Below the pieces are notes generated by a model that ran no database searches, had not been told where the DNA came from, and saw nothing but the letters and a program-made list of their open reading frames with translations. Positions 28,288 through 59,700 of a stretch of DNA of 64,000 nucleotides are shown here, piece by piece. Position 1 is the first letter of the stretch, and the number at the start of each line of letters is the position of its first letter. The position numbers were made by a program, and so were the translations under genes. Source of the DNA: Podarcis pityusensis (taxonomy: Eukaryota); NCBI GenBank assembly GCA_964106645.2, contig OZ067041.1. The stretch is one strand, 5' to 3'.

Positions 28288-28410
28288 ATTATTGTTGTTA
28301 TTTAGTCATTTAGTTGTGTCTGACTCTTCGTGACCCCATGGACCAGAGCACGCCAGGCACTCCTGTCTTCCACTGCCTCCCGCAGTTTGGTCAAACTCAT
28401 GCTGGTAGCT
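28288..28410 (-). mobile_element. BovB LINE, short 3'-terminal fragment
   Basis: Near-identical to 15715-15835 (ATSMSLTKLREAVEDRSAWRALVHGVTKS). Confidence 0.88.
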
Positions 28411-31102
28411 AGGGGAACACTGTGGTTTATTTGCGCATACTGCATATACAATCTGAGTCTACGATGGAGAGGTTTCCAAGAGGGTCTCTTGCTTTCCCGT
28501 AGGCACAACAGCCTTGGATTAAAATCAGAAATCAGACATGTGTTCTGTCTCCTTCTTACAGCCTGTCCCAGTTTTTGCCAGCGCATCACTGCCAACTTTC
28601 ATCCTAAAAATTCTGTCCTTTTGTCTCCTACTTACTACCTCTCTAGAGGAAGGAGGGGCTCACACCCCCACTGCTGTCCAGCACAAAGTAACTGCTTTGT
28701 TAATCACCCACCTCCCTTCCCCCCTTGTTTCCATAATGACTCGGTTATTAACAAGCTTTGCTCCCCTAATAACCCATAACAAACTGATGAGCGATCACCA
28801 GGTTGGCCTGCCTTGTATTTTTAACTTAAGAGATTTGTAATGGTTTAACTTCCCAAATCTTGATTAAGTCTACTTTTTATTGGACCCAGGAATTTAGGGT
28901 GTCACACACCCCATAAACTGTTAACAGTATCATGGGTTGGTTTGCAGTGTTGCCACAATGCATTGGAAAATCTGGTAAGTGCCTTCTGGACAACATTTCC
29001 TGACTGCATTTCCTAAACATGCAAAACCAAACCAAAATACACTTGCATAAAACCTTTGCCTCTAATATAATCAAAAAGAAATCCATACAGTTTTTCTTAT
29101 AAGGAGCTAATGCCTACTATGGGCTGTTTAGTTTTCAAAAGCATCCATGCTACAGTAACATTCAACAGACTTCCAATCTTTAATGGCAAATATATAAACT
29201 ATTACTTACTTAAAATCAAAGAGCTTGAAGGAATGTCAGGTATTGTCTAGGTACATACAAATGCAGAGACAGGATTCCCTGTAATTAAGCCTTCTCTGAA
29301 AGAACACTCCTTGGCATGTCTTTAAAAATATTTCTTATAGGAGATTATCTGTGGGCCACTATGTTATATGTTACTCTTGGATTCAGAGTAAATGTGCAAG
29401 ATTGTATATGGAACAAGTACTTAGGGTACCAACATTGGAAGGGAGGAGGATGGAACTTCTAGTTGACTTGAATATGCACCTCAGAGTGCTTTGTGTAGCA
29501 TATCGTGCACTACAGCATCTTATATTTTTTGAGTTATAAGCTTCAATAAAAAAAATTCAAAAAAGAACCAATTCTAAAAACAAAAATGAGGTGAGCAGCA
29601 TAATTTATAAATACTATGCTTATAGAGGCACCATTTGGGTATGTGTATTTTGCCTCCAGCCAAACAGACACATAGGCTGTACATGTACACATCGTTCATA
29701 ATATTTTGGAAATGCTTTCTTTGTGCAAAAAACAAGAGAGTGGAAAATAAAAAGTAGCAGAAAAACTCTGGCTTCATTAACTTATTCTTCAACAGTATTC
29801 ATCAGTTCTTACTTGTATTGAGAAACATTTGCTAATTGCCACCTTACCATTCCTATAGGTCAGATCCACTGCCTGCTGCTTCTCTCTGTGGCAAAGACTA
29901 AAAACAGTGAATTCCATTATCTTTAGTGCAGTTCTTTAAATATTTGAAAGTAGATCTATCCTCATTTCTCATATTTAATGTAGTATTAACATATTTTAAA
30001 AACTTCTCTTTCATTTCTTCATGGATGTGTTTGCACACATAGTCAGTGAATCCCAAGTCATGGACCCGACTGTACATTTGTGGTCAATAATGGCTATAAA
30101 TGGTGAGTTTGGGTCTAACCAGGCATTCTGAAGGCATTCAATATTTGTCTTAAATTGAATTATCCATTGTTTCCAATTCCAAGTAATCATAGATGAAGCC
30201 AAACTTTGGTTCTTTATGCATGTCCAAATTTGTTCTTTTTGGATTTAGTGAGACTAAATCCCTGCCACCTCCCTTCCAAACATTATTCTTTAGAGAATTA
30301 TGTTTGCATTTCAAATAAAAAATGTATTCAGTATGTTCGACTAACTTAGCACATGCTTTTATAGTATCTTTCTGCCTTCTCAGCTTTCTGACAGATAATA
30401 AGAGATTGTGGGTTATATATTTGTTTATTAACATTGCTATTCAAGTTGTACCACTAGAAAAAAAATGATATTATGTCTGCTTCTGTTGTACATTTATAAG
30501 GGTGAAATGCTCCTCTTGTGAAATTTTGTCATCTGTAAAAGCTGCTACTGTAGAACAATGAGAAATTGACATACTTTATATTGAGGTCTGTTCTGACTTT
30601 AAACAGACACGTGCATAGTATTGGAACACAGTTATTGTTTTTGTAAACCAAATAATGTATTTTGGAGCTTGCTTACATGTGTATTTTAAATAGGCAACAC
30701 TAATTAGACAAGTTACAGAATCTAATTTAAGTTTTGGGAAATAGGAAGTATGCTGCAAACATTGTGCGCAAGAACTATGAATAAATAGCTGCACTTGTAA
30801 TTCCTACTAGCAGGGCACATTTGGAGGACATGAACATACAAAATAAAGAAATTCTAATTTGAGTATGTTGGAAAGGCAGAGCTGTGTGAAATCTATATAC
30901 TTATAGATATTTTTAAAACTTTATTTTGATGTCTCTAGGGCTGCCTTTTTCAACCTTCGGTCCACAGATGTTGTTGTAGTTCATCAGGGGACCCAATATT
31001 GAGAAAGGTTGTTATAGTGTATGTAGATATGCATGCAAACAACTTTTATTCCATTTTCCTCAGAACAATTGCACAGCAAATATGAAAAGCTGTAAAAGTT
31101 AG

Positions 31103-31864
31103 TGTCAGAGCTGCTTCCAGATCCTAGCTCACAGAGGATCACGCTAGCCAGCGATCATTAAATAAAAGTCTTTATTGAGTTACAGTTTCCATTCTCAAGC
31201 TGCTGCGTGCAACTCTACGTCTCATGGTTAGATCGGCGAAACTCCATCTGAGTCTCCGCCCCTTGTACACCAACTTAATATCCTAGCCTTGCTCCACCTT
31301 TTCCGCCTGACTGTTCTTCTCTGGGTCCCTCTGCCCCCCGGGGTCTCTTCCTTCCGGGATTCCTCTGACGCTGACGCTGACCCCCCTGACTCTTCTCCCT
31401 CCTTTCGGCGGGCTTTAGGACCTGGCTCCCTTTCCGGGCTGCCTACTGCGCCACCTTCCTGTGCATTTGAACTTGGCACGCGCGCCCAACCTTCCACCTT
31501 CCGTCTGACCGTTTCTTCGCTCCCCGATGGAGGTGTGGCCACTCCTGACTCGTGCCCTCCCCCCTGTTGTGAGCTGCCAGCGCTTGATCCCTGGCGCCCT
31601 TCCTCTTCCCTGCTCTCTGGCGGTGACGCTGGTCCTGATTTCCAACTGCTCCCCTCTGAGTCCCCTCTGGCTCTATCTTCCTGGGGTGTCCCCCTAGGCT
31701 CCCCCCTTGCCCTGGCCACTGGTGCTCCTTTCTGTGAATCTTCTGATTCACTGGAAAGACTCGGAGATCTCGGGTCGTCGTCATCACTCATCTTTTCTTC
31801 TGCCTCCTCTCCCTCGCTCTCTGTTTCCTCCCTTGCCCTTGCCTCTGCTCCTGAACCCCTGACA
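31103..31864 (-). repeat. 3' LTR (762 bp)
   Basis: Identical to the 5' LTR by visual comparison except A31241 vs G37052; preceded on the minus strand by the polypurine tract. Confidence 0.97.
31171..31176 (-). terminator. Polyadenylation signal of the retrotransposon (3' LTR)
   Basis: AATAAA on the minus strand about 50 nt after the pol stop and about 70 nt before the LTR end; copy at 36982-36987. Confidence 0.75.
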
Positions 31865-34800
31865 TCCATCCCCCCCTCGAAGCCCCCTCTTCCCCCCTCC
31901 CCTCCTTCCGGTGCGGGATCTGGGTGCTGCCGTGTCAGGGGGACGAATGTCGGATACAGTTCGCTTCCCGTGGCGGGCCGCCATCCGAAGTCTTCCGGTT
32001 CTTCCTCCCTGCTCTCGTTGACGACGGTCACCTCCGCTTCCATCTCTGTGCCGCCGTGCTCGAAACCCGGGTCGTCCCCGAAAACGTCCATGTCCGTCTC
32101 TCCCTCGTTGCCTTCTGGAGACGTTGCTCGTCCTGGACCCTCCAGCCACCTTCTGCGGAACTGCTCCTCTGGTCGATCATCCCACCAATACGAGGGTTCT
32201 GAAGCAGATCCCGAGGGTGACCCCTCTGGGGAACGGGCGTCTCGTGTTGGTTCCTCGTCCGAGTCGAACCCCCGGAACGTGCTGGCTGAAAGCGTGGGCG
32301 TGAAAAGCCAGTCGTCGAAAAAGTCTGCTGGCATTGGCCTATGTGGGAAGAGGGCATGAAACTCTTCTTTGAGCAGAGGTTCGTCTAAAGCGTAGCCCGG
32401 CACCCAGCTGTTGGCACTGGCCGGGGTGCCCTCCTTGGCGAGAAGGTATTCTACCCCCTCTTCCCCCCATCTGGAGTCCAAAATCTCCGTGACTTCGTTG
32501 ATGCGCTCCTCCTGTGCCACTCCCCCTTGCCCGGTTCTCTCTCGGAGTGGACCCGGTGCCGTTCCTGGTTCCTGAAACCTGTGAGGTGCCTTGTAGGGAG
32601 TGAGCACCGATCTGTGGAACACCGGATGCATTCTGGAACCCTCCGGAAGAGCCAGCCTGAAAGCCACCGGGTTGACCTGTTCGTCGACTTGGTAGGGCCC
32701 CAGTTGTTTATGCCCTAGTTTCTTCTTCGCCAACGACCTGGCCGGCACTGCGTGGGCTGCTAACCAGACCCAGTCTCCCACATGGATCTCTTCGCCAACC
32801 CTTCTGTGTTTGTCCGCTTGTACCTTGTATGCGTGTTTAGCCAGCTCCAGGTGCCGCCGCAGCTGATCGTGGACCTCCTGCAACTCCGACGCGAACGCAT
32901 CTGCTGTCTGCGGCTCCCCCTCCCCCATTCTTTCCAGTCCCGGGAAGGTTCTAGGGTGCCTCCCGTTGTTGGCGAAGAACGGCGTGACCCCCGTGGACAC
33001 GTGCTTCGTGTTGTTGTAGGCGAACTCGGCGAGAGGCAGGTAATCCACCCACGTCGCAGGCTGTTGATTCGCATAACATCTCAGGTACTGCTGCATGATG
33101 GCATTGACCCGCTCCGCTTGCCCGTTGGTCTGCGGGTGTCTAGCCGACGCCAGGTTGATCTTGACGTTCAGGAAGCCCATCAGCCTCTGCCAGAAGTTTG
33201 AGATGAACTGTCGCCCTCGGTCGGACAGAATAGACCGCGGCAGACCGTGAACCTTGAACACGTGGTCTATGAACAGTTTGGCGGTTTGTTCCGCCGTGGC
33301 CACCTTTGCACACGGAATGAAATGTGCCATCTTGGAGAACAAATCCACCACCACCAGCACAGCCGTCTTGCCCCTCGAGCTGGGCAGATCCGTGACAAAG
33401 TCCAGGGCCACTCTCTCCCATGGCTCGAACGGAGTTTGCAGCGGTTCCAGCAGTCCGGCCGGCGGTCTGTGCACTGGTTTGGCCCTCTGGCAGGTGTCAC
33501 ACCTCGCCACGTAGTCCGCGACTTCCCCTCTCATTCCGGGCCACCAGAAGTCTCTGGCTACTAATTCCACCGTCTTCTCCTTGCCAAAGTGCCCGGCAGT
33601 GGGCGCGTCGTGCAGCTGCTGCAGTACCTTGGCGCGAAGTTCGTCTCCCGGCACGTAGATGGCCCCTTTACGGATGAGCAAACCATCTCGCAGCTGGAAC
33701 TCGTCGGTCGCTGCCGTGCCCCTGTGCACCTCTGCCATCTTTGCTTGCGCGAAGGAGTCATCCTGCAACGCTCGTCGCACCGCATCCAGGTCAACTGTTG
33801 CCGCCGCGCACGCCCACACTGTCGGTGCGAAGATGTGCATGGCGGCCGCTGGCGTTGCCTCCTCCAGATACTGTGGCTTACGGGAGAGAGCATCCGCCAT
33901 GATGTTGGTGTCCCCCGGGACATACGCTATTCGGAAGTCGAAATTCGCAAAGAACTCAGCCCAACGTATCTGCCTCTGGTTCAGGAACTGTGCCGTGCGC
34001 CAGTGCTCTAGATTCTTGTGGTCCGTGCAGACCTGCACCGTGTGCTTGGCGCCGATCAGGAAGTGCCTCCACGCTTTGAACGCTGCATGAATGGCCAGCA
34101 ACTCCCTGTCCCAGATGGTGTAGTTCTGTTCGGACTTGCTGAGCTTCCTTGAGTAAAACGCTCCCGGCCTCCAAACCCCCTGCGGGTCTTTCTGCAGCAG
34201 GACTGCTCCCACGGCTCTGTCCGAAGCGTCTGTCTCCACCCTCATCGGCCTGCTGGGGTTGACATGAAGCAGCTGCTCTTCCGACGCGAAGAGACGCTTG
34301 AGTGCCTGAAAGGACTGCTCCGCCTGCTCTGTCCAGATGAACTTCTTTTTCTTGGAGCTGAGCGTGTCCGTGATGGCCGCTGTCTGCATGGCAAAGCCTT
34401 TGATAAACTTGCGATAGAAGTTCGCGAAGCCGACAAACCGTTGGACCTCCTTCCGGTTGCGTGGGCTTTTCCAATCCAACACTGCTCGGACCTTGGCGCT
34501 GTCCATGGCGAGCCCTTTATCAGACAACTTGTAGCCCAGGAAATCCACCTCCGTCACGTCGAATTGGCACTTCTCCAGCTTGGCGTAAAGCCTATGTTGC
34601 TGTAGCCTGCTCAGCACTTCCTTGACGTGTCTGTCATGCTCCTGCTGCGATTCCGAAAAGATCAGGATGTCATCCAAGAAACAGACGCACGTCTTGTAGA
34701 GGAGCCCCGCCAACACGTGATGCATGAAAGCTTGAAAAACGTGGGAGCCATTTTGCAATCCAAAAGGCATAACTCTATATTCGTAGGTGCCCAGGGGCGT

Positions 34801-35799
34801 GAACATGGCTGTCTTCCACTCATCTCCCTCCCGCATGCGAATGAGGTTGTATGCCCCTCGCAGGTCCAACTTGGTGAACACTCTGCCCTTCCGTACCTTT
34901 GCGAGGAGGTCGTCGATTCGGGGCATGGGGAAGTCCGATGGCTTGGTCACACTGTTCAAGATGCGAAAGTCCACTACAAGTCTTTTTTGGGGCGTGTCCC
35001 GCTTCTTAACAAAGAATACCGGACTGCCCCCCGCTGCCTTGGACTCTCGGATGAAACCGCGCTCCAAATTATGATCTATGAACTCTTTGAGTTCCTGCAG
35101 TTCGTCCTCAGACATGGAATACAGCTTCCCTTTGGGCAGCGCCGCCCCCGGCAGCAGGTCAATTTTGCAGTCATATGGTCTGTGGGGGGGTAGCCTGTCT
35201 GCCTCTTTCTCGCAGAAAACCTCCAAAAATTCTGCGTACTTGTGGGGAACCGCTTGCAGCGTGCCTAGCTGCAGCTGTGACTCCTCTTCCCCTCCTTCCT
35301 GCCTGGGCACGATGCAGTGTTCAGCGCAAAAGGAAGAGCCGAAGGTCAGCTGCCTCTGGTACCAAGCCAGCGTCGGGCTGTGCTTGTCCAGCCAACTCAT
35401 GCCCAATACAATGGGCGTGTCCGATAGTTGAGTGACATTGAAGCTGATGATTTCCCTGTGATTCCCAAGTCGCATCACCATTGGTGGCGTCTGCTTCACC
35501 ACTTGCCCCCCTAGCAGCTCCCTGCCATCCACCGTGACAACCTGCAGGGGCAGCGTGGCAGGCAGCAACTGTATAGCGTGCCGGTCGACAAAGTCCTGCC
35601 CTATAAAGTCCGCATTGCTTCCGGAGTCAATGGTGATTGGCACATCCATGGTGATTCCATTGGGCAGCTGGAGCGACGCGGTGAGCCTCACTACCGGTTT
35701 GGGCGGGAGGGGGTCCATGGGCTGTAAAATCTCTGGGGACTGCTTCACTGACACGTCTGGCTGGGCCCCAGTGCCTCTTCCTCCAACCAGACTCCTTCG
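31228..35799 (-). CDS. pol: Pol (expressed as ~1860-aa Gag-Pol via -1 frameshift): protease, RT, RNase H, integrase, degenerate chromodomain, 370-aa C-terminal extension
   Basis: Uninterrupted frame. PR ITIDSGS; RT KLDLRGAY, MPFGL, FLDDILI; RNase H ETDASD, DHKNL, ADALSR; IN LHDAPTAGH...CDTC and LDFV...SDRG...QAERVN; GPY motif; chromo-like EVTEILDSR...EYLL...SWVP...EFH. Confidence 0.95.
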   Translation of the reverse strand, partial: RRSLVGGRGTGAQPDVSVKQSPEILQPMDPLPPKPVVRLTASLQLPNGITMDVPITIDSGSNADFIGQDFVDRHAIQLLPATLPLQVVTVDGRELLGGQVVKQTPPMVMRLGNHREIISFNVTQLSDTPIVLGMSWLDKHSPTLAWYQRQLTFGSSFCAEHCIVPRQEGGEEESQLQLGTLQAVPHKYAEFLEVFCEKEADRLPPHRPYDCKIDLLPGAALPKGKLYSMSEDELQELKEFIDHNLERGFIRESKAAGGSPVFFVKKRDTPQKRLVVDFRILNSVTKPSDFPMPRIDDLLAKVRKGRVFTKLDLRGAYNLIRMREGDEWKTAMFTPLGTYEYRVMPFGLQNGSHVFQAFMHHVLAGLLYKTCVCFLDDILIFSESQQEHDRHVKEVLSRLQQHRLYAKLEKCQFDVTEVDFLGYKLSDKGLAMDSAKVRAVLDWKSPRNRKEVQRFVGFANFYRKFIKGFAMQTAAITDTLSSKKKKFIWTEQAEQSFQALKRLFASEEQLLHVNPSRPMRVETDASDRAVGAVLLQKDPQGVWRPGAFYSRKLSKSEQNYTIWDRELLAIHAAFKAWRHFLIGAKHTVQVCTDHKNLEHWRTAQFLNQRQIRWAEFFANFDFRIAYVPGDTNIMADALSRKPQYLEEATPAAAMHIFAPTVWACAAATVDLDAVRRALQDDSFAQAKMAEVHRGTAATDEFQLRDGLLIRKGAIYVPGDELRAKVLQQLHDAPTAGHFGKEKTVELVARDFWWPGMRGEVADYVARCDTCQRAKPVHRPPAGLLEPLQTPFEPWERVALDFVTDLPSSRGKTAVLVVVDLFSKMAHFIPCAKVATAEQTAKLFIDHVFKVHGLPRSILSDRGRQFISNFWQRLMGFLNVKINLASARHPQTNGQAERVNAIMQQYLRCYANQQPATWVDYLPLAEFAYNNTKHVSTGVTPFFANNGRHPRTFPGLERMGEGEPQTADAFASELQEVHDQLRRHLELAKHAYKVQADKHRRVGEEIHVGDWVWLAAHAVPARSLAKKKLGHKQLGPYQVDEQVNPVAFRLALPEGSRMHPVFHRSVLTPYKAPHRFQEPGTAPGPLRERTGQGGVAQEERINEVTEILDSRWGEEGVEYLLAKEGTPASANSWVPGYALDEPLLKEEFHALFPHRPMPADFFDDWLFTPTLSASTFRGFDSDEEPTRDARSPEGSPSGSASEPSYWWDDRPEEQFRRRWLEGPGRATSPEGNEGETDMDVFGDDPGFEHGGTEMEAEVTVVNESREEEPEDFGWRPATGSELYPTFVPLTRQHPDPAPEGGEGGRGGFEGGMDVRGSGAEARAREETESEGEEAEEKMSDDDDPRSPSLSSESEDSQKGAPVARARGEPRGTPQEDRARGDSEGSSWKSGPASPPESREEEGRQGSSAGSSQQGGGHESGVATPPSGSEETVRRKVEGWARVPSSNAQEGGAVGSPEREPGPKARRKEGEESGGSASASEESRKEETPGGRGTQRRTVRRKRWSKARILSWCTRGGDSDGVSPI
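31865..31878 (-). promoter_or_regulatory. Polypurine tract (plus-strand primer)
   Basis: Minus-strand GAGGGGGGGATGGA directly abuts the TG of the 3' LTR; further G/A runs extend to about 31909. Confidence 0.9.
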
Positions 35800-35805
35800 T
35801 TTCCC
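35733..35805 (-). promoter_or_regulatory. Programmed -1 ribosomal frameshift signal (G GGA AAC plus predicted H-type pseudoknot)
   Basis: Heptamer at 35805-35799 in the gag frame (CAG GGA AAC); the -1 frame is pol (GKRRSLV). A 6-nt spacer precedes the 10-bp stem GTCTGGTTGG/CCAGCCAGAC; loop CTGGGG can pair with CCCCAG at 35738-35733. Confidence 0.88.
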
Positions 35806-36821
35806 TGCTGTGGTTGTCCTTGCTGCGTTGCTGCAGTTACCATTGCTGAGGCTGCAGTGTGCTTGTGGAGCCTCTGGGGACACTCTTTCGCCATATGCTG
35901 TGGATCATCGCAGATGTAACACTTCCTGTTCCCTCTAGGAGGCTTCGCTTTCACTGCTGCCGGTGCTAGGGCTCTGGCTGCTGACTGAGCCCTTGCACCT
36001 CCAACCTCCATAGGTTCCGCTCCTCCTCCTGGCGGAGGCGTGGATTGCGCACGCGCTGCTTCTCTGGGAAGGAAGGAGGAGCCCCTGGCTGGTTCGCGCC
36101 CTCCACGCCCTTCGTCCCTGCTCCACGGACGTCCTTCCAGCCGCACCCCCACCGCCAGCGCCCTCTGAACGATCTCCTGCGTGGTCCGGGGTTTCTCCCC
36201 CCTCGCAATTTCATCTTTAACCGAGCCGTGCAATCCCTCCCAAAACAGGTCTCTTACAGGAGCCGAATCTCTGTCCCATTCCAGGGCACTGACCAAAGCG
36301 AAAAAGCGGGCATGGTACTGCCTTACGCTGGCCCTCCCTTGCTTCAGTCCATGTATCTCCTGCCGAGCAAGATCCACGTCAATGCTTGATAAAAAGCACC
36401 CATCCATCGCTTTAATAAAGGCATCCGCATTTTGGAGCGCCGGATCCTTATCTCTCCACAAATTGCGCAGCCATGCTTTAGCATCTCCATGCAAATGGGA
36501 CATGATGAATCCCACCTTCTCTTGCTCATCTCTAAAGTCTTTGTTCAGCAGTTGCAGTGCACACATTACATCTGCTCTAAAGTTGGGGTACTGTTGCAAA
36601 TTCCCATCGAAGTGAGAGACCAGACCGCCTGTTCGTCTCCCCAACCCAATCCCCTCCGGTTTGGGTGTCAGTTGCCCTTGCTTCGTAAGCACTTCCAACC
36701 TGACCTGGAGATCCCTGTAGGCGGCAGCTGCGTCCTCCTCTCTCTTCCTGGATGCAAGAGCCTCGGCATTCAGTCGTGTCACTGCTTCTCTGAGTTCCAC
36801 TATCTGCTGTTCGGCCGTCAT
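35745..36821 (-). CDS. gag: Gag (358 aa from first ATG): coiled-coil N-terminus, retrotransposon capsid domain, CCHC zinc knuckle
   Basis: ATG at 36821 (GACAACATGA, A at -3). Capsid-like FDGN...KVGFIMSHLHGDAKAW...LKQGRASVRQYHARF...FWEGLHGSVKDE; EPMEVG motif; knuckle CYICDDPQHMAKEC (CX2CX4HX4C). Confidence 0.93.
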   Translation of the reverse strand: MTAEQQIVELREAVTRLNAEALASRKREEDAAAAYRDLQVRLEVLTKQGQLTPKPEGIGLGRRTGGLVSHFDGNLQQYPNFRADVMCALQLLNKDFRDEQEKVGFIMSHLHGDAKAWLRNLWRDKDPALQNADAFIKAMDGCFLSSIDVDLARQEIHGLKQGRASVRQYHARFFALVSALEWDRDSAPVRDLFWEGLHGSVKDEIARGEKPRTTQEIVQRALAVGVRLEGRPWSRDEGRGGREPARGSSFLPREAARAQSTPPPGGGAEPMEVGGARAQSAARALAPAAVKAKPPRGNRKCYICDDPQHMAKECPQRLHKHTAASAMVTAATQQGQPQQGNEGVWLEEEALGPSQTCQ

Positions 36822-36901
36822 GTTGTCTGCCGTTCGTGAGCTCGCTAGTAGGCACCCGCTTTCTCTCCTCTCCGCGAGGACGTAGATGCCCACAATCTAG
36901 G

Positions 36902-36913
36902 GATGGAGCTTAC
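36902..36913 (-). promoter_or_regulatory. Primer-binding site, non-tRNA (self-priming type)
   Basis: Sequence after the 5' LTR reads GTAAGCTCCATC with no TGG; AAGCTCCATC is the exact complement of LTR sequence GATGGAGCTT at 37059-37050. Confidence 0.75.
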
Positions 36914-37675
36914 TGTCAGAGCTGCTTCCAGATCCTAGCTCACAGAGGATCACGCTAGCCAGCGATCATTAAATAAAAGTCTTTATTGAGTTACAGTTTC
37001 CATTCTCAAGCTGCTGCGTGCAACTCTACGTCTCATGGTTAGATCGGCGAAGCTCCATCTGAGTCTCCGCCCCTTGTACACCAACTTAATATCCTAGCCT
37101 TGCTCCACCTTTTCCGCCTGACTGTTCTTCTCTGGGTCCCTCTGCCCCCCGGGGTCTCTTCCTTCCGGGATTCCTCTGACGCTGACGCTGACCCCCCTGA
37201 CTCTTCTCCCTCCTTTCGGCGGGCTTTAGGACCTGGCTCCCTTTCCGGGCTGCCTACTGCGCCACCTTCCTGTGCATTTGAACTTGGCACGCGCGCCCAA
37301 CCTTCCACCTTCCGTCTGACCGTTTCTTCGCTCCCCGATGGAGGTGTGGCCACTCCTGACTCGTGCCCTCCCCCCTGTTGTGAGCTGCCAGCGCTTGATC
37401 CCTGGCGCCCTTCCTCTTCCCTGCTCTCTGGCGGTGACGCTGGTCCTGATTTCCAACTGCTCCCCTCTGAGTCCCCTCTGGCTCTATCTTCCTGGGGTGT
37501 CCCCCTAGGCTCCCCCCTTGCCCTGGCCACTGGTGCTCCTTTCTGTGAATCTTCTGATTCACTGGAAAGACTCGGAGATCTCGGGTCGTCGTCATCACTC
37601 ATCTTTTCTTCTGCCTCCTCTCCCTCGCTCTCTGTTTCCTCCCTTGCCCTTGCCTCTGCTCCTGAACCCCTGACA
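36914..37675 (-). repeat. 5' LTR (762 bp)
   Basis: Direct repeat of 31103-31864 (offset 5811); TG...CA ends; lies upstream of gag on the minus strand. Confidence 0.97.
37086..37091 (-). promoter_or_regulatory. Candidate TATA-like box of the LTR promoter
   Basis: TATTAA on the minus strand, an isolated AT-rich spot in a GC-rich U3, starting 32 nt upstream of the predicted self-primer/TSS (~37059). Confidence 0.55.
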
Positions 37676-41051: not shown

Positions 41052-41478
41052 TATGTCATAGGGCAATCCAAACCCAGGATCAAACCCCAATTGTAATCAG
41101 CTAGCAGACTGACTGGATGGTTCAGGATACCCCTAAGCCTACTTACATCTGTAATCAATAAACGTTGTGGCCTGTTTTGATCCCAGATCATCCACTTAGG
41201 TAATTTTTTGCTTCTCACTCCCCAGCTTCAGGGGTGGTGGGCTCACTGCACCTGGGCACGCAACTGAATATTAATACAAATTATCGTGTGGTTCAAAGTC
41301 ATCTAGAGGAAAATAAAATAAGAATCATTAGAATGATAATAGCCTGATCCTTAATATGCATCTGATTTCTATATTTGTGTTGGTTTCCTTGCAATTTTAA
41401 GGTCAGTCTTCTATACTGGCAACAATTGAAAGTGTGGATAAGGATTATTATTTTTCATGAATTGTATTTTCTTTTCAG

Positions 41479-42142
41479 TGGGATGCTATAACAGAAATGG
41501 ATGAATATAATCGCCCCATCCACACTTACCAGGTATGTAATGTTATGGAACCCAACCAGAACAACTGGCTTCGTACAAACTGGATTTCCCGTGATGCAGC
41601 TCAGAAAATTTATGTGGAAATGAAGTTTACACTGAGGGACTGCAACAGCATTCCATGGGTACTGGGAACATGCAAGGAAACATTTAACCTCTACTACCTG
41701 GAATCAGATGAATCCCATGGAATTAAATTCAAGCCAAACCAGTACAGTAAAATTGATACTATTGCAGCTGATGAGAGTTTTACTCAGATGGATTTGGGTG
41801 ATCGCATCCTTAAACTGAACACAGAAGTTCGTGAGGTGGGACCAATAAACAGGAAAGGATTTTTTCTTGCTTTTCAAGACATTGGTGCGTGCATTGCTTT
41901 GGTCTCTGTCCGTGTTTACTACAAAAAGTGTCCTTTCACTGTTCGGAATTTGGCTATGTTTCCTGACACTATTCCAAGGGTTGATTCTTCATCTTTAGTG
42001 GAAGTACGAGGTTCCTGTGTGAAGAGTGCTGAGGAGCGGGACACTCCAAAATTATATTGTGGAGCAGACGGGGATTGGCTTGTGCCTCTAGGACGATGCA
42101 TCTGCAGTGTTGGGTATGAAGAAGTGGATGGTTCCTGCCACG
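41479..42142 (+). CDS. EPHA6: Ephrin type-A receptor 6, internal coding exon (exon 3: ligand-binding domain and start of Cys-rich region)
   Basis: Acceptor ttttcttttcag at 41478|41479 and donor CACG|gtaag at 42142|42143; 664 bp, phase 0 to phase 1. Translation [73 protein letters not shown]...[36 protein letters not shown]. As recalled, [17 protein letters not shown] and TIPRVDSSS mark the EphA6 paralogue. Confidence 0.93.
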
Positions 42143-45100
42143 GTAAGATAATTGTTCTTAATTAATTCCAGGATACTTTTTGTTTTTTGTTTTACCACTT
42201 GGCCTGTTGTCCAGGTTTCACTGAACTTAATGGCGAAATCAGTTTTAATAGGAGATGGATTGAGCTCATGATCTATTTTACTGTTGTATGTTGCTCAGGA
42301 TATGTTCAGATCAGAACTGTTTTCAACAAAGAATACAGAATGTGCATGTTCAGGGAAAACAAAGTTGCTTACTTGTAATAAATTAATGGGTAAAGCACAA
42401 TAGTTTTTCGTTTGTTATGAAGAATACAAAATTTAAGTTGCTGCATGAATACCAAATATGATTAATTCAATAGAAGATTAAAGTTTTACTGCTATGTACC
42501 TAAGGATCAGAGTATCATAGAATTGCAGAGTTGGAGGGGATCCTGAGGGTAATAAATAAATTCATAAGTGTGAAACAATACAATATATAAAGGCAATATT
42601 TGTCTTTAAAGCACTACATATTGTATAAGATAAAATAAGCAGTTACTTCTGAGAAAAGAAACAGCAGATACTTTGCATGAATACTAAAGAGCAGGTAGAC
42701 GGTACATCCCAAGTATTGTATGGGAGGTCACTGCAATAAGTTTTTCTGCTGCACAGTTACTTTGGTACTAGTTATTGCTGTGTTCTTTCTCACAGAAACA
42801 AATGCTCAGTGTAAAACATTAGTGTGATCACTATATTTTCAAGTGTATGTAGAAAAGATTGAAATGGTAGTAAGTTGAGGCTATAAATGAAGGCTTTTGA
42901 CAATGGAGTATGAGGGAATTTATTTGCGTCTCAATATAGTACCTCCCCATTTCAGGTTAAGCAGTGGACTAAGGGAAAAAATAGCATCCTGATATTTGGG
43001 CATGTGAATAAATATTAATATATTTTAAATATATATAAATAGAAATATATATATTAAGTATTTTATTTTATTTCTATTTGATTGTTTGTATAAATTTGTG
43101 AACCACTTTTTAATACCAATACTCTTGGGCAGCTTACATCCATGAAAGAAAATAATAAAAACATGCAAACAGATAATGCTTCTGTGATGGGTATCTACCT
43201 AGATAACCTGTTTAATATGACTAATAATTACAAATAATAAATATATGTGTAGCCTTATTTGAGTTCACCGATTCATATGTTCCATTAAACTTGGGCTTAA
43301 ATAGAAACAAGATAAAAGAAGCACATGGCTTATGGAATGTCCATCTTTTTGGCCCAACCAGCCACTATAGCTTGACCTAGCATTCAAAATAAACAGATTT
43401 GATAGCTCTGAGCTTAATGTTCTTGAAAAACTCTTTGATTAAAGTTCTCAGAAGAGCAAATTAAAGTTGTGTACTAATGCTAGTACATTAATCTGGAAGT
43501 GCAAAATGTAACCACATTATTATTTGGGTTTGGGTAAGGGTGGTAGGACAGTTAGAACATCAGTTAGCCCATGAATTGTGTCCAAAATATATTAATAATT
43601 TCTCATATAAAGAGTAGAACTATCATCTAAATGCTCTGTGGCCAATTATAAATCTATATATTAGTCCCCACCCCACCTCTCCTGTACTTTTTGACTGTGT
43701 ATATTCAATAAGAGGATAACGTCTGTAACAGAACCAAGAATGCCTAGGCAGAAGCATAATAAGAGTACCTAAAAGCATGCTTATTCAAATATTTCTATTT
43801 AATTGCTTAGAGGGTGGGAAATTAGTGTTTAAACAGATCATGTTGTAAGATGACTATTTTAGTAGTTCCTCAGTTTGGCTTCCTATAGAGACAAGTGGTT
43901 TTATGAATTATTCTCAGGGGTGAATTGCATTTTCATACGTCTGTACATCTTTGAATGGCTGTTCTAGGTTGATGCTATATTTGATGTGTTTTTAAATTCT
44001 ACACAACACATTTGTGTCCATGCATGTGTAAATGAGTTCTAAAGTAAGCTGCAAGATTAAGAGCACTAAAAATCCTCTCCTGTCTGCCAAATGTTTTTTT
44101 AAAAATGAACGGTAACAAAGAACTGCTCAAATCTTCTGGTTCAGTTGTCAGTCTCTGTATAAGCAATCAATTGCCTTGCTCTACACTGACTGGAAACGTG
44201 GTCTGGAAATGTCTGGAAAATATGCACAGCAGCAGCAGACCATACAATCAAGACCTGTGTGACCAGTGTAGTTCAAGAAAATGGCTTGTCACCTAGGACA
44301 GGTACGGGAAACCAGCTCTTATCCTCTGAGCCAGTGCAGCTGCAGGCCAACAGAACTGCTGTGTCAGTCCTTGGAGCAGCCCCTTCTTAATGCAAGTTTG
44401 AAAAATCCTCTGTATGACCTTGTATTCTGACATTGTCAAGAGTGTCTCAGCATTAAATGCCCTAGCTTGGAAGACCTAGATAGAGGATAACAAGTATGTG
44501 TAAAACTAGCCTGTTGCAGAAAAATAAAATGTACATTCATTGCTTTTGCTTCTGGATCCATGTGTCATGTGGCCCCCAAAAGGTTTCCCAAAGGGAATGT
44601 GGCCCTTGGTCTGAAAAAAAATTATCTATCCCTGGTATAAACAATTAGAGGCTTTTAGAGATGATTATTACCGGCCATTGAGCATCTTAATCCCTCTTTT
44701 GGAAAGTAAGTGTTTTCCAGAGATAAACCTTTCATCAGGAACACCTGCTTGTATGGAGATATATACTGTTGCTTAGGACAGTGCATTTTAATCACTAGGT
44801 TAAAGCTTTAGGGAGGAAAGCTTTGGAGATACAAACTTTGGGAGAGCGTGTTCTCCTACATAGAGAGCATGGGTTGCGGTGGGGTTAACAAGACACCTCA
44901 CTGTTGCCGGGCGGGTTAGTTTGGATGTCCACCGTTGTGATTGGGCTCCTCTTGTTGTTGGTGAGAGTTTGATGTTGCCAATTATGGATTGACAGCCTTA
45001 GGTGATATATTCTCTGTGCGCAGCATGGAGCTTCCTCTTTTCACTGCGCGCATCTGATTAAGCAGTGGAGAGAAGCATTTCTTTCAAAAAAACAGTTGTG

Positions 45101-55957: not shown

Positions 55958-56378
55958 GAGCTATGGGGTTGGGAACTAGGGAGAATTTATTTTCCTTCTG
56001 CCTTCAGTTGTCCACCTGTTTAGACAGAACCTGTTAGGGAGTGGGACCATGATTAGTTAGGAACAAACTTCAGGTTATGCTTAATACACAACATGCAGCT
56101 AAATCACTTGTGGTATTTTCTTAAATTAATTATCTCCACAGAAGGAAAGGTTGCTATCAGGACCATACCCTGCAGGTAGGGAAGACATATTTCACTGCTC
56201 CCTTGCCATACGCTCTACCCCAACGATCACACCCTGCATAGCTATAAGACTCAGTAACAAAGTGTCCATTGATGTCAATAGGAACATTTTTATTAAGCCT
56301 CATAGCTGGGCAAGGCCAGTTCTTTTTTTGGGGGGGGGGGGTCACAGCTGAAGAGGAAAGGAATAAGCATATGCAGTC

Positions 56379-56418
<40 letters not shown>

Positions 56419-56751
56419 TTATTTGTTCCCCAGCCACTCTGGATGGCTTCCAACAAAGATTAAAAATACATTAAAATGTCACACATTAAAAACTTCCCTG
56501 AACAGGGCTGCCTTCAGATGTCTTCTAAATGTCAGGGAGTTGTTTATCTCTTTGACATCTGATGGAAGGGCGTTCCATAGGGCGGGCACCACTACTGAGA
56601 AGGCCCTCTGCCTGGTTCCCTGTAACTTTGCTTCTCGCAGTGAGGGAACCGCCAGAAGGCCCTCAGCGCTGAACCTCAGCGTCCGGGCAGACCGATGGGG
56701 GTGCAGACGCTCCCTCAGGTATACTGGGCCGAGGCCGTTTAGAGCTTTAAA
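56379..56751 (-). mobile_element. L2 LINE 3' fragment with (TAT)n tail
   Basis: FKALNGLGPVYLRERL...RAFSVVVPALWNALPSDV...FRRHLKAALF is an L2-type ORF2 C-terminus; trinucleotide tail at 56379-56416. Confidence 0.85.
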
Positions 56752-59700
56752 CGAGTCTCCCTCTCCACAGCTGACCATAATGTGTAGTTTGACCCTTAGT
56801 CTCAAGGTGATACCCACAGAAACAGCAACAAGACAGGCTCCACTTTCCTGTCGCCATTGTCAGTAAAGCCACAAGTATTGGAGAGCAGCAGTAACATAGG
56901 ATCCATCTCATTCCTTGTCCTAGCCAAAGTTATACGGGCCAAGTTTGTAGGCAGTGGTGGGCAGAAGAAACATCCCTAATCTGCTGGGTGTCTGTGCTGA
57001 GAGCACACATGAGGGCACCTGAACACATCTGGACTTTTCATCACTTTCTTATCTGCTGGGTCAACATAAAAAGTTGAAAGCAGGTTTCAAGCACTGCAAA
57101 CCCCAGCAAGGTTCAAGAGAATTTTCAAACTGTGCAAGCTTCAGCAATATATCTATTATATTAACTGTGACATGCAAATCCATTCAGCTCTACTGTTTTT
57201 GCAGATTTATTTTACTTTTAAGCAAAAGGGCAGCTTGCACAGGGGAGAAGACAACAGAGGAAAGCAAGAGAGAGATTCATTATGGATACGCTTGGGATGA
57301 AGCCACACTCCAAATCGGAATTTGGAAGCTTCGAAGCTCACAAATCATCAGAATCCATGGGAAAAAGATATATTGTGTTCTGTGACCTCATTGCCCTCCA
57401 ACAGCACTGTTCCAGAAGGAGACCAGCTGTCACTGGCTGGGTTCCCATTAAGCTGCTCAGTGGCAGCTGCAGACAGCACAACAAAGGCTTAATGGGGCTT
57501 CAAATATTAATTCCCATTTTAATATTTTCTATAGTATCTGGTTTTTTTCTAGGATACCATGTTGGTATGCTTAACCTCTTGAAACACAAATGAATGGTGC
57601 CAATTCCATGTAGCAAGCTGGATCTTTTTGTTTGCTTGTTTGTTTGGAGGCTGCTTTCCATTATGGTTATCATTTGACATAGTGGGCAGGGTGGAGACAG
57701 CACAGTCCTTTTAATGGCCTGGATATTTGTTGGTAGACAAAAGGGGTTAAAGTCACACATACACACATACACACAAAGCCTGGCATATGTCTAGATTTTA
57801 ATTTGTGTACTGTATCTCTGTGTGTTGATTTTGTTTGTGTCACCTTTGCAAATGCTCTGGACTGGAAGAGAGTCAGAAGCGTGTGTTTGCATTCATCCAC
57901 ATGGTGTTAGAATGCGCACACAGAATTGGAAATGGTTGTGCCTTTCACCTGGCCATTGTCTGAGTCTTAATCTGCACCTTCCCAAACTGGGCTAGGAGGA
58001 GGAGCAGCAAGAAGGAGCCTAGTTCACAATAGCATCTTTGCTTTTTTCTAGGCATCATGAAGAATAGCAACACAGCACTGCTGGGTGGTAGGAGGAGGTG
58101 GCTGAATGGTGTGTGGCAACTCAGGGCTTGCCCACACTTCCGCTTGTCATGCCTCCTCCCCCTGGGGAAGCCTACTCTTTACAGTTGAATCAGAACAAAT
58201 ATCAATCAAGTTTTCGTAGGATTGACATTTGCTCCAATTCAGCAGTAAAGAACAGGTTTTTCCAGGGTAAGTAGTAGGGCAAACAGAAAACGATTCTGAC
58301 ATATGCTTTTTAGGCACAGAACAAGTGAAGTGTGGGTCAGCCCTCAGAGCCATACTGGTTGGCTGATTGGCTTTTTGTTTTTGTTTTTATTATTCACATG
58401 GGGTAAGATCAGCCTGAAGAAAGCAAGGAGTTACAGGCAGGAGCCACTGGCTTAAACAACAGAAGAATTGCAGGCCAACCGGCATGGGGCAGCAACAAAG
58501 AGCCTGTAGAATGGGTTGCTAGCCCATTCTTCTTCAGCATAAATGGCCAATATGCAGGCTCTCAGCTTGGAGTTGTGTTGAATCGCAGCTGGCTCCCTTG
58601 GCTACATGTATGAGACTATTTAGAAAACTGGTGAATGGGAGCTTTCACTTCTCAGAATTACAAAGCAGACGAAGATTGCCATCTATGTATGGGATCAGAG
58701 TCAAGCTGAAGCTTGGAATTTGAATTCTGACAGATATCTGGATCTAATAACTCTACCGAACAGCCTCCAAGCAGCAGGGGGGGAAATGCAGTTGGAAGTG
58801 GAGAAGCAGGTAGAAGAGTTTTCCCTAATTCACAACCAATTCTCCCTGCAGTCCTCTTTTCATGTTCTTCTCTCTCAGTTGCGCTTACCATATTATAAGT
58901 AAAAATGGTGGAAGGAAGGAAAGGGATATGATTTGGGACATAGGGAAAAGAAGAAGGGTTAAATACCCAAGCATTTGTTATTTCAAATTGCATCCTGCTG
59001 CTGCTTTGCAACAATTCAGTGGAAACTCATGTTCTGAAAATTAGTGTTCTAACCCTGGGAGATAGCACTGTATATTGCTGATTACTGTAAGAGCACCCCA
59101 GGAAGAAGCAGAAAAGGTAGCCGGGAAAGAGAATTTTAAAAAGAAGAGAATTCACAATATACTCTCGGCAGCTATTTACAGAATTGACTCCTGAACTCAA
59201 TTTGTTTGCATTTTAAGTGTGAATCAGTCTCAATGAGCTGAAAGATGCAACCTCCACCCCAACAAAATCAGATTCTTAACATATCCCTTTCACCCATGGC
59301 TAAGCAATCATGCAAACATTAACAGGGTTTCTGCTGCACAATACCTGAAATACAAGTTGCAGAAATTCCTAGTGAAGCATAGTGATGTGTATATTAGGCA
59401 GACAGTAAAGTACAGGCATGTAATTGAAGCACTACAGAATTGTTTGTATACTGGATAACTTGTTAGTCCATTCCACATACCTGTGAACAATGAACACATG
59501 TGGAAGAGGAGCATCGCAATATCAGAAGTGTTTTTTTCAAGTTGGCAGATATAACTGTCCCCACCCTGCAAAAGTCAGAACCAGAGCCCACTTTTTCACC
59601 ATCCCACAATTGTGAATCATGACAATTTGATTACTTATTCAGTATCTTTGGGTCTATTTTCAGTCTCTGCTATCAGCTGAAAGTCTGTAGACATATATAT

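Follow-up and report, generated by a model that had tools for sequence, protein, structure and literature searches.

A lizard Ty3/gypsy chromovirus that probably primes reverse transcription with the 5′ end of its own RNA

Self-priming of reverse transcription has been shown for the fission yeast retrotransposon Tf1 and implicated in elements from fungi to vertebrates, as passages of a series of sources report with reference to Butler et al. 2001 (PMC4600332, PMC6317226, bioRxiv 2022.12.06.519325, PMC7472051, PMC11042837, PMC10680173, PMC3601003, PMC2774666, PMC5341516, PMC3035444, PMC7175516, PMC4131045). Passages, again with reference to Butler et al. 2001, describe it as the feature common to the fungal and vertebrate Tf1/sushi group (among them bioRxiv 2022.12.06.519325). 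About half of Tf1 cDNAs are described as bearing a primer-binding site (PBS) copy in single-stranded form at their 3′ end (in a passage of PMC11042837), and the V-clade is described as known from fish, amphibians and amniotes (in passages of PMC2774666 and PMC4131045). In the accounts these passages give, self-priming is proven in fission yeast and elsewhere inferred from static complementarity.

A mechanism of this kind is already known and, according to reviews, has been proposed for vertebrate Tf1/sushi elements; no report of self-priming in a reptile element was found in the literature searched. What is new here is genetic evidence for self-priming and for rewriting of the PBS from natural copies. 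Hundreds of young copies of an element from the genome of Podarcis pityusensis provide compensatory variants, mismatched intermediates and a linkage pattern that would be difficult to account for if the PBS were not rewritten with the primer as template. One copy lies in the 64,000 nt stretch of contig OZ067041.1 analysed here (the window). We conclude from sequence comparison that this element likely uses the 5′ end cleaved from its own RNA to prime minus-strand DNA synthesis, in the manner of Tf1, with a probability of close to 0.9.

The element, its coding region and its relatives

The retrotransposon that carries the primer site at its 5′ end is a 6.57 kb Ty3/gypsy element on the minus strand. 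Its 5′ LTR (36914..37675) is 762 bp long and has TG...CA ends, its 3′ LTR (31103..31864) is identical to it at 761 of 762 positions, and a 5 bp target site duplication (TSD), CTAAC, flanks the element at 37680-37676 and 31102-31098. The sole LTR difference, a T at 31241 in the 3′ LTR, falls in the R-start, inside the primer 10-mer. Across 58 other TSD-bounded copies, whose paired LTRs differ by 61 substitutions in sum, just two of the 61 fall in the primer region, which is thus no obvious hot spot. The window copy is an intact, recently inserted Ty3/gypsy chromovirus, and the family to which it belongs is large and young, with 3457 matches to its LTR pattern in the genome, 245 junctions of the window copy's type and the LTR differences just given. 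Copies also occur nested or repeated in dense clusters near contig ends (G000:C1:138.8-139.7 Mb and G000:C2:0-1.5 Mb), many of them without matching TSDs, possibly reflecting subtelomeric accumulation or recombination-driven tandem insertion. Beyond the element, the window holds stop-to-stop frames of 234 codons (41461-42165), 186 codons (56306-56866) and 151 codons (28324-28779), all on the plus strand.

The gag frame (35745..36821, minus strand) encodes Retrotrans_gag and Ty3_capsid domains and a CCHC knuckle. The pol frame (31228..35904, minus strand) follows in the -1 frame, with a slippery-like GGGAAAC at 35805 on the same strand, and encodes protease, reverse transcriptase (RT), RNase H, integrase, SH3, a weak chromodomain and an acidic tail, with PR-RT-RH-IN in the Ty3/gypsy order. 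A purine-rich tract, the PPT region (31865..31910, minus strand), precedes the 3′ LTR. The chromodomain-like region after the integrase (32490-32340, minus strand; approximately Pol residues 1140-1190) matches PF00385 with an E value of 7.6e-4 and 19.8 bits, below the Pfam cut-off of 25.1. Its top PDB match is HP1/CBX5 (E 0.0026), and PF00385 is carried by close relatives. The region reads LLAKEG in place of the LLKWKG of HP1-type domains, so that an aromatic cage residue is altered.

Without a stop, the acidic tail of pol crosses the PPT, the entire U3 and, in the 3′ LTR, the R-start that encodes the primer (31864-31228, minus strand), extending some 210 codons into that LTR. Of 58 TSD-bounded copies, 46 share the TAA at which it ends, and an equally long opening arose in 22 of 1000 shuffles. 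In comparisons with diverged lineages, which are not independent of one another, third codon positions account for 52-57 of 99-105 differences in the tail. Both of the common primer variants described below are synonymous in the tail frame, and the primer and the protein tail therefore appear to constrain each other.

Over RT-RH the nearest named protein is a Podarcis muralis UniRef entry (95%). In an RT-RH tree the element grouped with squamate, amphibian and fish proteins inside a clade of fungi and vertebrates (SH-aLRT 99; 27 of 35 rows); this was a quick tree of 35 rows picked from protein matches, with neither a named Tf1 nor a named sushi-ichi sequence among them and with an imperfect outgroup. 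The clade corresponds to the Tf1/sushi group as a passage of bioRxiv 2022.12.06.519325 describes it, and the element is very probably a vertebrate member of that group. A more distant family in the same genome, with 55% RT identity (L201-L220), has a single open frame of about 1623 codons in some copies, and in others Gag is covered by its own frame of about 307 codons, which suggests two layouts of gag-pol expression within one family.

The primer-binding site covaries with the start of R

The PBS, AAGCTCCATC (36902..36911, minus strand), lies 2 nt (GT) past the LTR end and is the exact reverse complement of GATGGAGCTT at 37059-37050. The latter, together with A37060, forms the predicted 5′ end of the RNA and the candidate self-primer (37050..37060, minus strand). 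An earlier note on this DNA, made from the letters alone, had pointed to this 10 bp pairing, to a TATTAA box 32 nt upstream of the presumed start and to the lack of a TGG, tRNA-type PBS after the 5′ LTR, and each of these observations holds: the pairing is exact, the box (37086..37091, minus strand) begins at 37091, 32 nt before 37059, and no TGG stands near the LTR end, the first lying about 20 nt downstream. The box is TATA-like and has a putative promoter function; it is noncanonical in relatives, two related subfamilies reading CTTAAA. Judging from the junction bases discussed below, A37060 is likely an alternative start in a pyrimidine/purine initiator context. The AATAAA poly(A) signal in R (36982..36987, minus strand) is present in every row of alignment A1. 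Reads from four RNA runs that matched the element were mostly less than 95% alike, came from related subfamilies and showed no 5′ or 3′ pile-up; transcripts of the 3′ LTR cover U3 in any case, so that read coverage is uninformative on the start site.

The match between PBS and R-start is one of just two inverted repeats that reach 8 nt in 36780-37110, and it is the longer of them. Among 5000 dinucleotide-shuffled LTRs, 69 held, for any 10-mer at offset 0-5, a complement exact over 10 nt, and four held one in a 40-nt window round the observed site. Taken alone, the complementarity is moderately unlikely by chance.

Variation within the family was followed in 90 copies, obtained by taking the first 100 of 1367 matches to the junction pattern and dropping ten rows of another repeat; copies picked for their identity to the window (L001-L030 and L050-L060) are excluded from the counts. 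The PBS exactly complements the R-start of the 5′ LTR in 85 of the 90. Sixty-two of these exact copies are of the common type, and 23 carry matched variants on both sides: primer position 6 A>G with PBS T>C (12 copies), primer position 3 T>C with PBS A>G (nine copies) and primer position 3 T>A with PBS A>T (two copies). Against the 85 observed, permutation gave a mean of 49 exact matches and a maximum of 63 in 20,000 shuffles; the sampled copies are related, some being local duplicates, and the three variants may represent few mutational events, so this result is not a strict probability. The five mismatched copies (L092, L105, L111, L121 and L131) would be expected as short-lived intermediates after recombination.

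Linkage across the leader is more telling. The position-6 variant in the PBS (36907) is completely linked to its partner in R (37054), 147 nt away (r2 1.0), and is unlinked to U5 site 36922 (r2 0.01) and to leader sites 36881/36880 (r2 0.00), while the U5 and leader sites, which lie on opposite sides of the PBS, are in linkage with one another (r2 0.66). The same variant occurs on both leader types, in six copies each, and none of its 12 copies has a G-U intermediate, though G-U would pair. The position-3 PBS variant has an r2 of 0.79 with its R partner, as it has with U3 site 37100. Where the two LTRs of a TSD-bounded copy differ in the 10-mer (L063, L070 and the window copy), the PBS matches the 5′ LTR. 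L063 and L070 carry different primer variants in their two LTRs, which differ at six and two positions, respectively; intermolecular plus-strand transfer or later gene conversion may account for this. The linkage pattern as a whole would be explained most simply if the primer served as template for the PBS when the plus strand is made, and we regard this as probable.

The earlier note had suggested that covariation be sought across subfamilies, and the same arrangement recurs in relatives. In a subfamily with about 61% Gag identity, the PBS and the R-start differ from the window copy at three positions, on both sides, and 26 of 30 copies pair exactly; one further copy is G-U-compatible, one has a terminal mismatch, and two without an R site (L229 and L230) are counted as misses. 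In these last two copies (G000:C19:36151339-36155409 and G000:C20:118234-122304) a CCCTAA telomere-like repeat replaces the 5′ LTR upstream of U5. A family with 70% RT identity, with LTR ends defined in 20 of 20 copies, has an unrelated 11-mer after CA-GC whose complement lies 129 nt upstream (29 of 30 copies exact), and the family with 55% RT identity has yet another 10-mer after CA-GT (30 of 30 exact). Among eight PBS-variant copies of the latter family, two are compensated, four are not and two have no R site, which indicates that some PBS variants are not propagated. The start of the complementary stretch is a pyrimidine/purine step in all three families and lies about 29-32 nt past a TATA-like box. 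The geometry is thus kept, with different letters, in a diverged subfamily and two distant families.

Chance, or a frozen accident carried by descent, is a most improbable explanation. A 10-nt match does arise somewhere in the LTR in the 69 of 5000 shuffles noted above, but such an origin is effectively refuted by compensation at three positions, by the four different primer sequences that occupy one relative position and by linkage that passes over the neighbours of the PBS.

In LTR elements that are primed by tRNA, copying of the primer into the plus strand resets the PBS. Were the pairing a selected structural element, serving packaging, dimerisation or translation control, and the real primer a host tRNA fragment or small RNA, the PBS would be reset to one host sequence; yet four PBS forms occur here and others in the relatives, and every form fits the LTR of its own element. 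If pairing were all that is selected, G-U should be tolerated as well, and the 12 position-6 copies hold no case of it. A tRNA 3′ end cannot match the PBS, because the TGG needed for 3′-end priming is absent. The earlier note had suggested a search for a better host match: among 26 distinct tRNA genes of eight amino-acid types, the longest complement was 7 nt, and anchored matches reached at most 8 of 18. That gene set is partial, and half-tRNA priming exists in some copia lineages according to literature passages; that the PBS varies together with the LTR is a stronger argument against tRNA priming than the tRNA set. We consider a host primer very unlikely, and the tRNA-independent, Tf1-like self-priming that the earlier note proposed draws support from the compensatory changes within the family, in the 61% Gag subfamily and in the 70% and 55% RT families.

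The junction 3′ of the primer-binding site

Directly 3′ of the PBS lies a hypervariable junction (36897..36901, minus strand), which takes 25 different forms in the 90 copies. Position +1 is C in 49, T in 38 and A in three copies; +2 is C in 88; and +3 is T in 51, C in 20 and A in 19. On three trees built without the junction columns, +1 requires 28-29 changes and +3 requires 19-27, against a maximum of 6-15 for the other 1747 columns, and the r2 of +1 with every other site is at most 0.08. A T at +1 lengthens the pairing to A37060, and in two copies the junction reads TGA, which complements the three bases lying upstream of the 10-mer in the usual LTR.

Related families are informative here as well. 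The 61% Gag subfamily reads TC at the junction in 28 of 30 copies. In the 55% RT family, C follows straight after the 10-mer in 99 of the first 100 of 254 matches, to a pattern that itself fixes downstream letters, and the base after this constant C varies in 16 of the 99 listed. In the 70% RT family, C follows the 11-mer in 30 of 30. A C without an LTR template stands after the PBS in all three families.

Reverse transcriptases add C opposite the cap. The junction pattern could accordingly reflect the choice of start site, followed by a C copied from the cap and then by untemplated bases, and on balance we lean towards this reading. The PBS would then be rewritten each cycle from the capped 5′ end of the RNA, and the genomic copies would be a record of the start site chosen and of the cap copied with it, a proposition we hold to be slightly better than even. 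The cap or untemplated-base step may already have been described for Tf1 cDNA, and the constant C could be kept by selection instead of by cap copying.

It is also possible, at rather less than even odds, that self-priming is right and the junction is an ordinary mutation hot spot of strand transfer with untemplated additions, the C being neither cap-derived nor a mark of the start site. Tf1 RT is described as adding untemplated bases to most cDNA 3′ ends (in a passage of PMC11042837), the families examined number three, and A stands at +1 in three of the 90 copies. Against an ordinary hot spot, T, which complements A37060, is the main alternative at +1 (38 of 90 copies, and 28 of 30 in the 61% subfamily), the two TGA copies complement three bases upstream of the 10-mer, and the family with a single apparent start has its constant C one base earlier (99 of 100 listed) and a variable base next (16 of 99).

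The earlier note had also suggested that U5 can pair with the PBS and leader in a competing fold. The U5 motifs that it listed are present, but the CCTAG partner of CTAGG occurs in just 19 of 90 copies, with a pairing probability of 0 to 0.30. As a family feature this fold was not upheld, since CCTAG falls in the hypervariable junction and is not conserved.

Leader folding, the proposed mechanism and known systems

The primer:PBS helix has a predicted pairing probability of 0.98 when 170, 210 or 220 nt are folded and of 0.03-0.36 at 280-560 nt. It is absent from the minimum-energy fold of 231 nt (z-score 0.32), and the free energy of the whole leader was no better than that of shuffles. The probability of the helix depends on the folded length, and thermodynamics alone is therefore not decisive.

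Comparison among 49 distinct leaders points to two helices. The primer:PBS helix shows two-sided change in three of ten pairs and is 99.2% paired. A second helix, between R (37020..37027, minus strand) and the end of U5 directly 5′ of the PBS (36918..36925, minus strand), shows two-sided change in four of eight pairs, with 99.2% of cells paired, and slid controls gave at most two two-sided pairs (at most 2 of 18). The number of two-sided pairs is not above a shuffle control (56 of 500) and the covariation score is (0 of 500); in both cases the structure was derived from the same sequences, which represent about three subfamilies and few independent events. The R:U5-end helix matches one of the pair of helices next to the PBS in the 'pretzel' of Tf1 (as described in a passage of bioRxiv 2022.12.06.519325); the alignment folds hold no conserved counterpart of the third 'pretzel' helix, which would lie 3′ of the PBS.

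Two further candidates were rejected. An 8-bp R:leader helix of the window copy (37032-37025 with 36886-36879) is broken in about 40 of 90 copies and absent from the alignment folds. A local U5 hairpin (36945-36937 with 36923-36913) was set aside in favour of the R:U5 helix because it shows no two-sided change and is 92.5% paired, one of its pairs being broken in 26 of 49 rows.

Under the self-priming mechanism that we propose, RNA polymerase II would start at A37060 or G37059, as the junction bases suggest. The first 10-11 nt of the RNA would fold onto the PBS, a predicted pairing whose two sides covary, aided by the adjacent R:U5-end helix. By analogy with Tf1, RNase H would cut after the primer. 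The linkage pattern suggests that RT then copies the retained primer during plus-strand synthesis, so that the daughter PBS would be rewritten from the RNA 5′ end. Finally, RT may continue past the primer onto the cap, where it would add a C followed by untemplated bases; once fixed by plus-strand transfer, these would form the variable junction that lies 3′ of the PBS.

The vertebrate proposal is hereby turned into precise predictions: starts at A37060/G37059, a primer of 10-11 nt and a C after the PBS copy. If the PBS is rewritten each cycle from the capped RNA end, the copies would constitute natural-genetic proof of self-priming in an amniote, and a signature legible in sequence alone (complement, C, variable base) would allow start sites and priming mode to be read in any LTR family. 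Independence from tRNA would, moreover, put such families beyond silencing by tRNA fragments at the PBS.

The LTR-PBS-gag-pol-PPT-LTR layout is shared with tRNA-primed LTR elements such as retroviruses, Ty3 and plant chromoviruses; unlike these, the lizard element has no TGG, no tRNA match longer than 7 nt in the partial set, and a PBS that varies with its own LTR. With the vertebrate Tf1/sushi group it shares membership of the RT-RH clade, the -1 frameshift layout and the chromodomain-like region, although its chromodomain falls below the cut-off, its pol runs about 210 codons into the 3′ LTR and the tree that places it holds no named reference element.

The closest likeness is to Tf1/Tf2 of Schizosaccharomyces pombe and Tj1 of S. 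japonicus. According to literature passages, these too have a PBS directly after the 5′ LTR that is complementary to approximately the first 11 nt of the RNA (PMC7175516, PMC4600332, bioRxiv 2022.12.06.519325, PMC11042837), and they are described as Ty3/gypsy elements with a chromodomain (weak in the lizard element) and a second helix adjacent to the PBS. Their primer is reported to be copied into DNA at the cDNA end, a step which the linkage pattern suggests for the lizard element. In contrast to the fission-yeast elements, which a passage of bioRxiv 2022.12.06.519325 describes as lacking a CCHC and as having one ORF or readthrough, the lizard element has a vertebrate host, a Gag CCHC knuckle and pol in the -1 frame. 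Tf1 has three 'pretzel' helices, two of which are supported here, and the cleavage and priming that are proven for Tf1 would, by analogy, operate in the lizard element as well.
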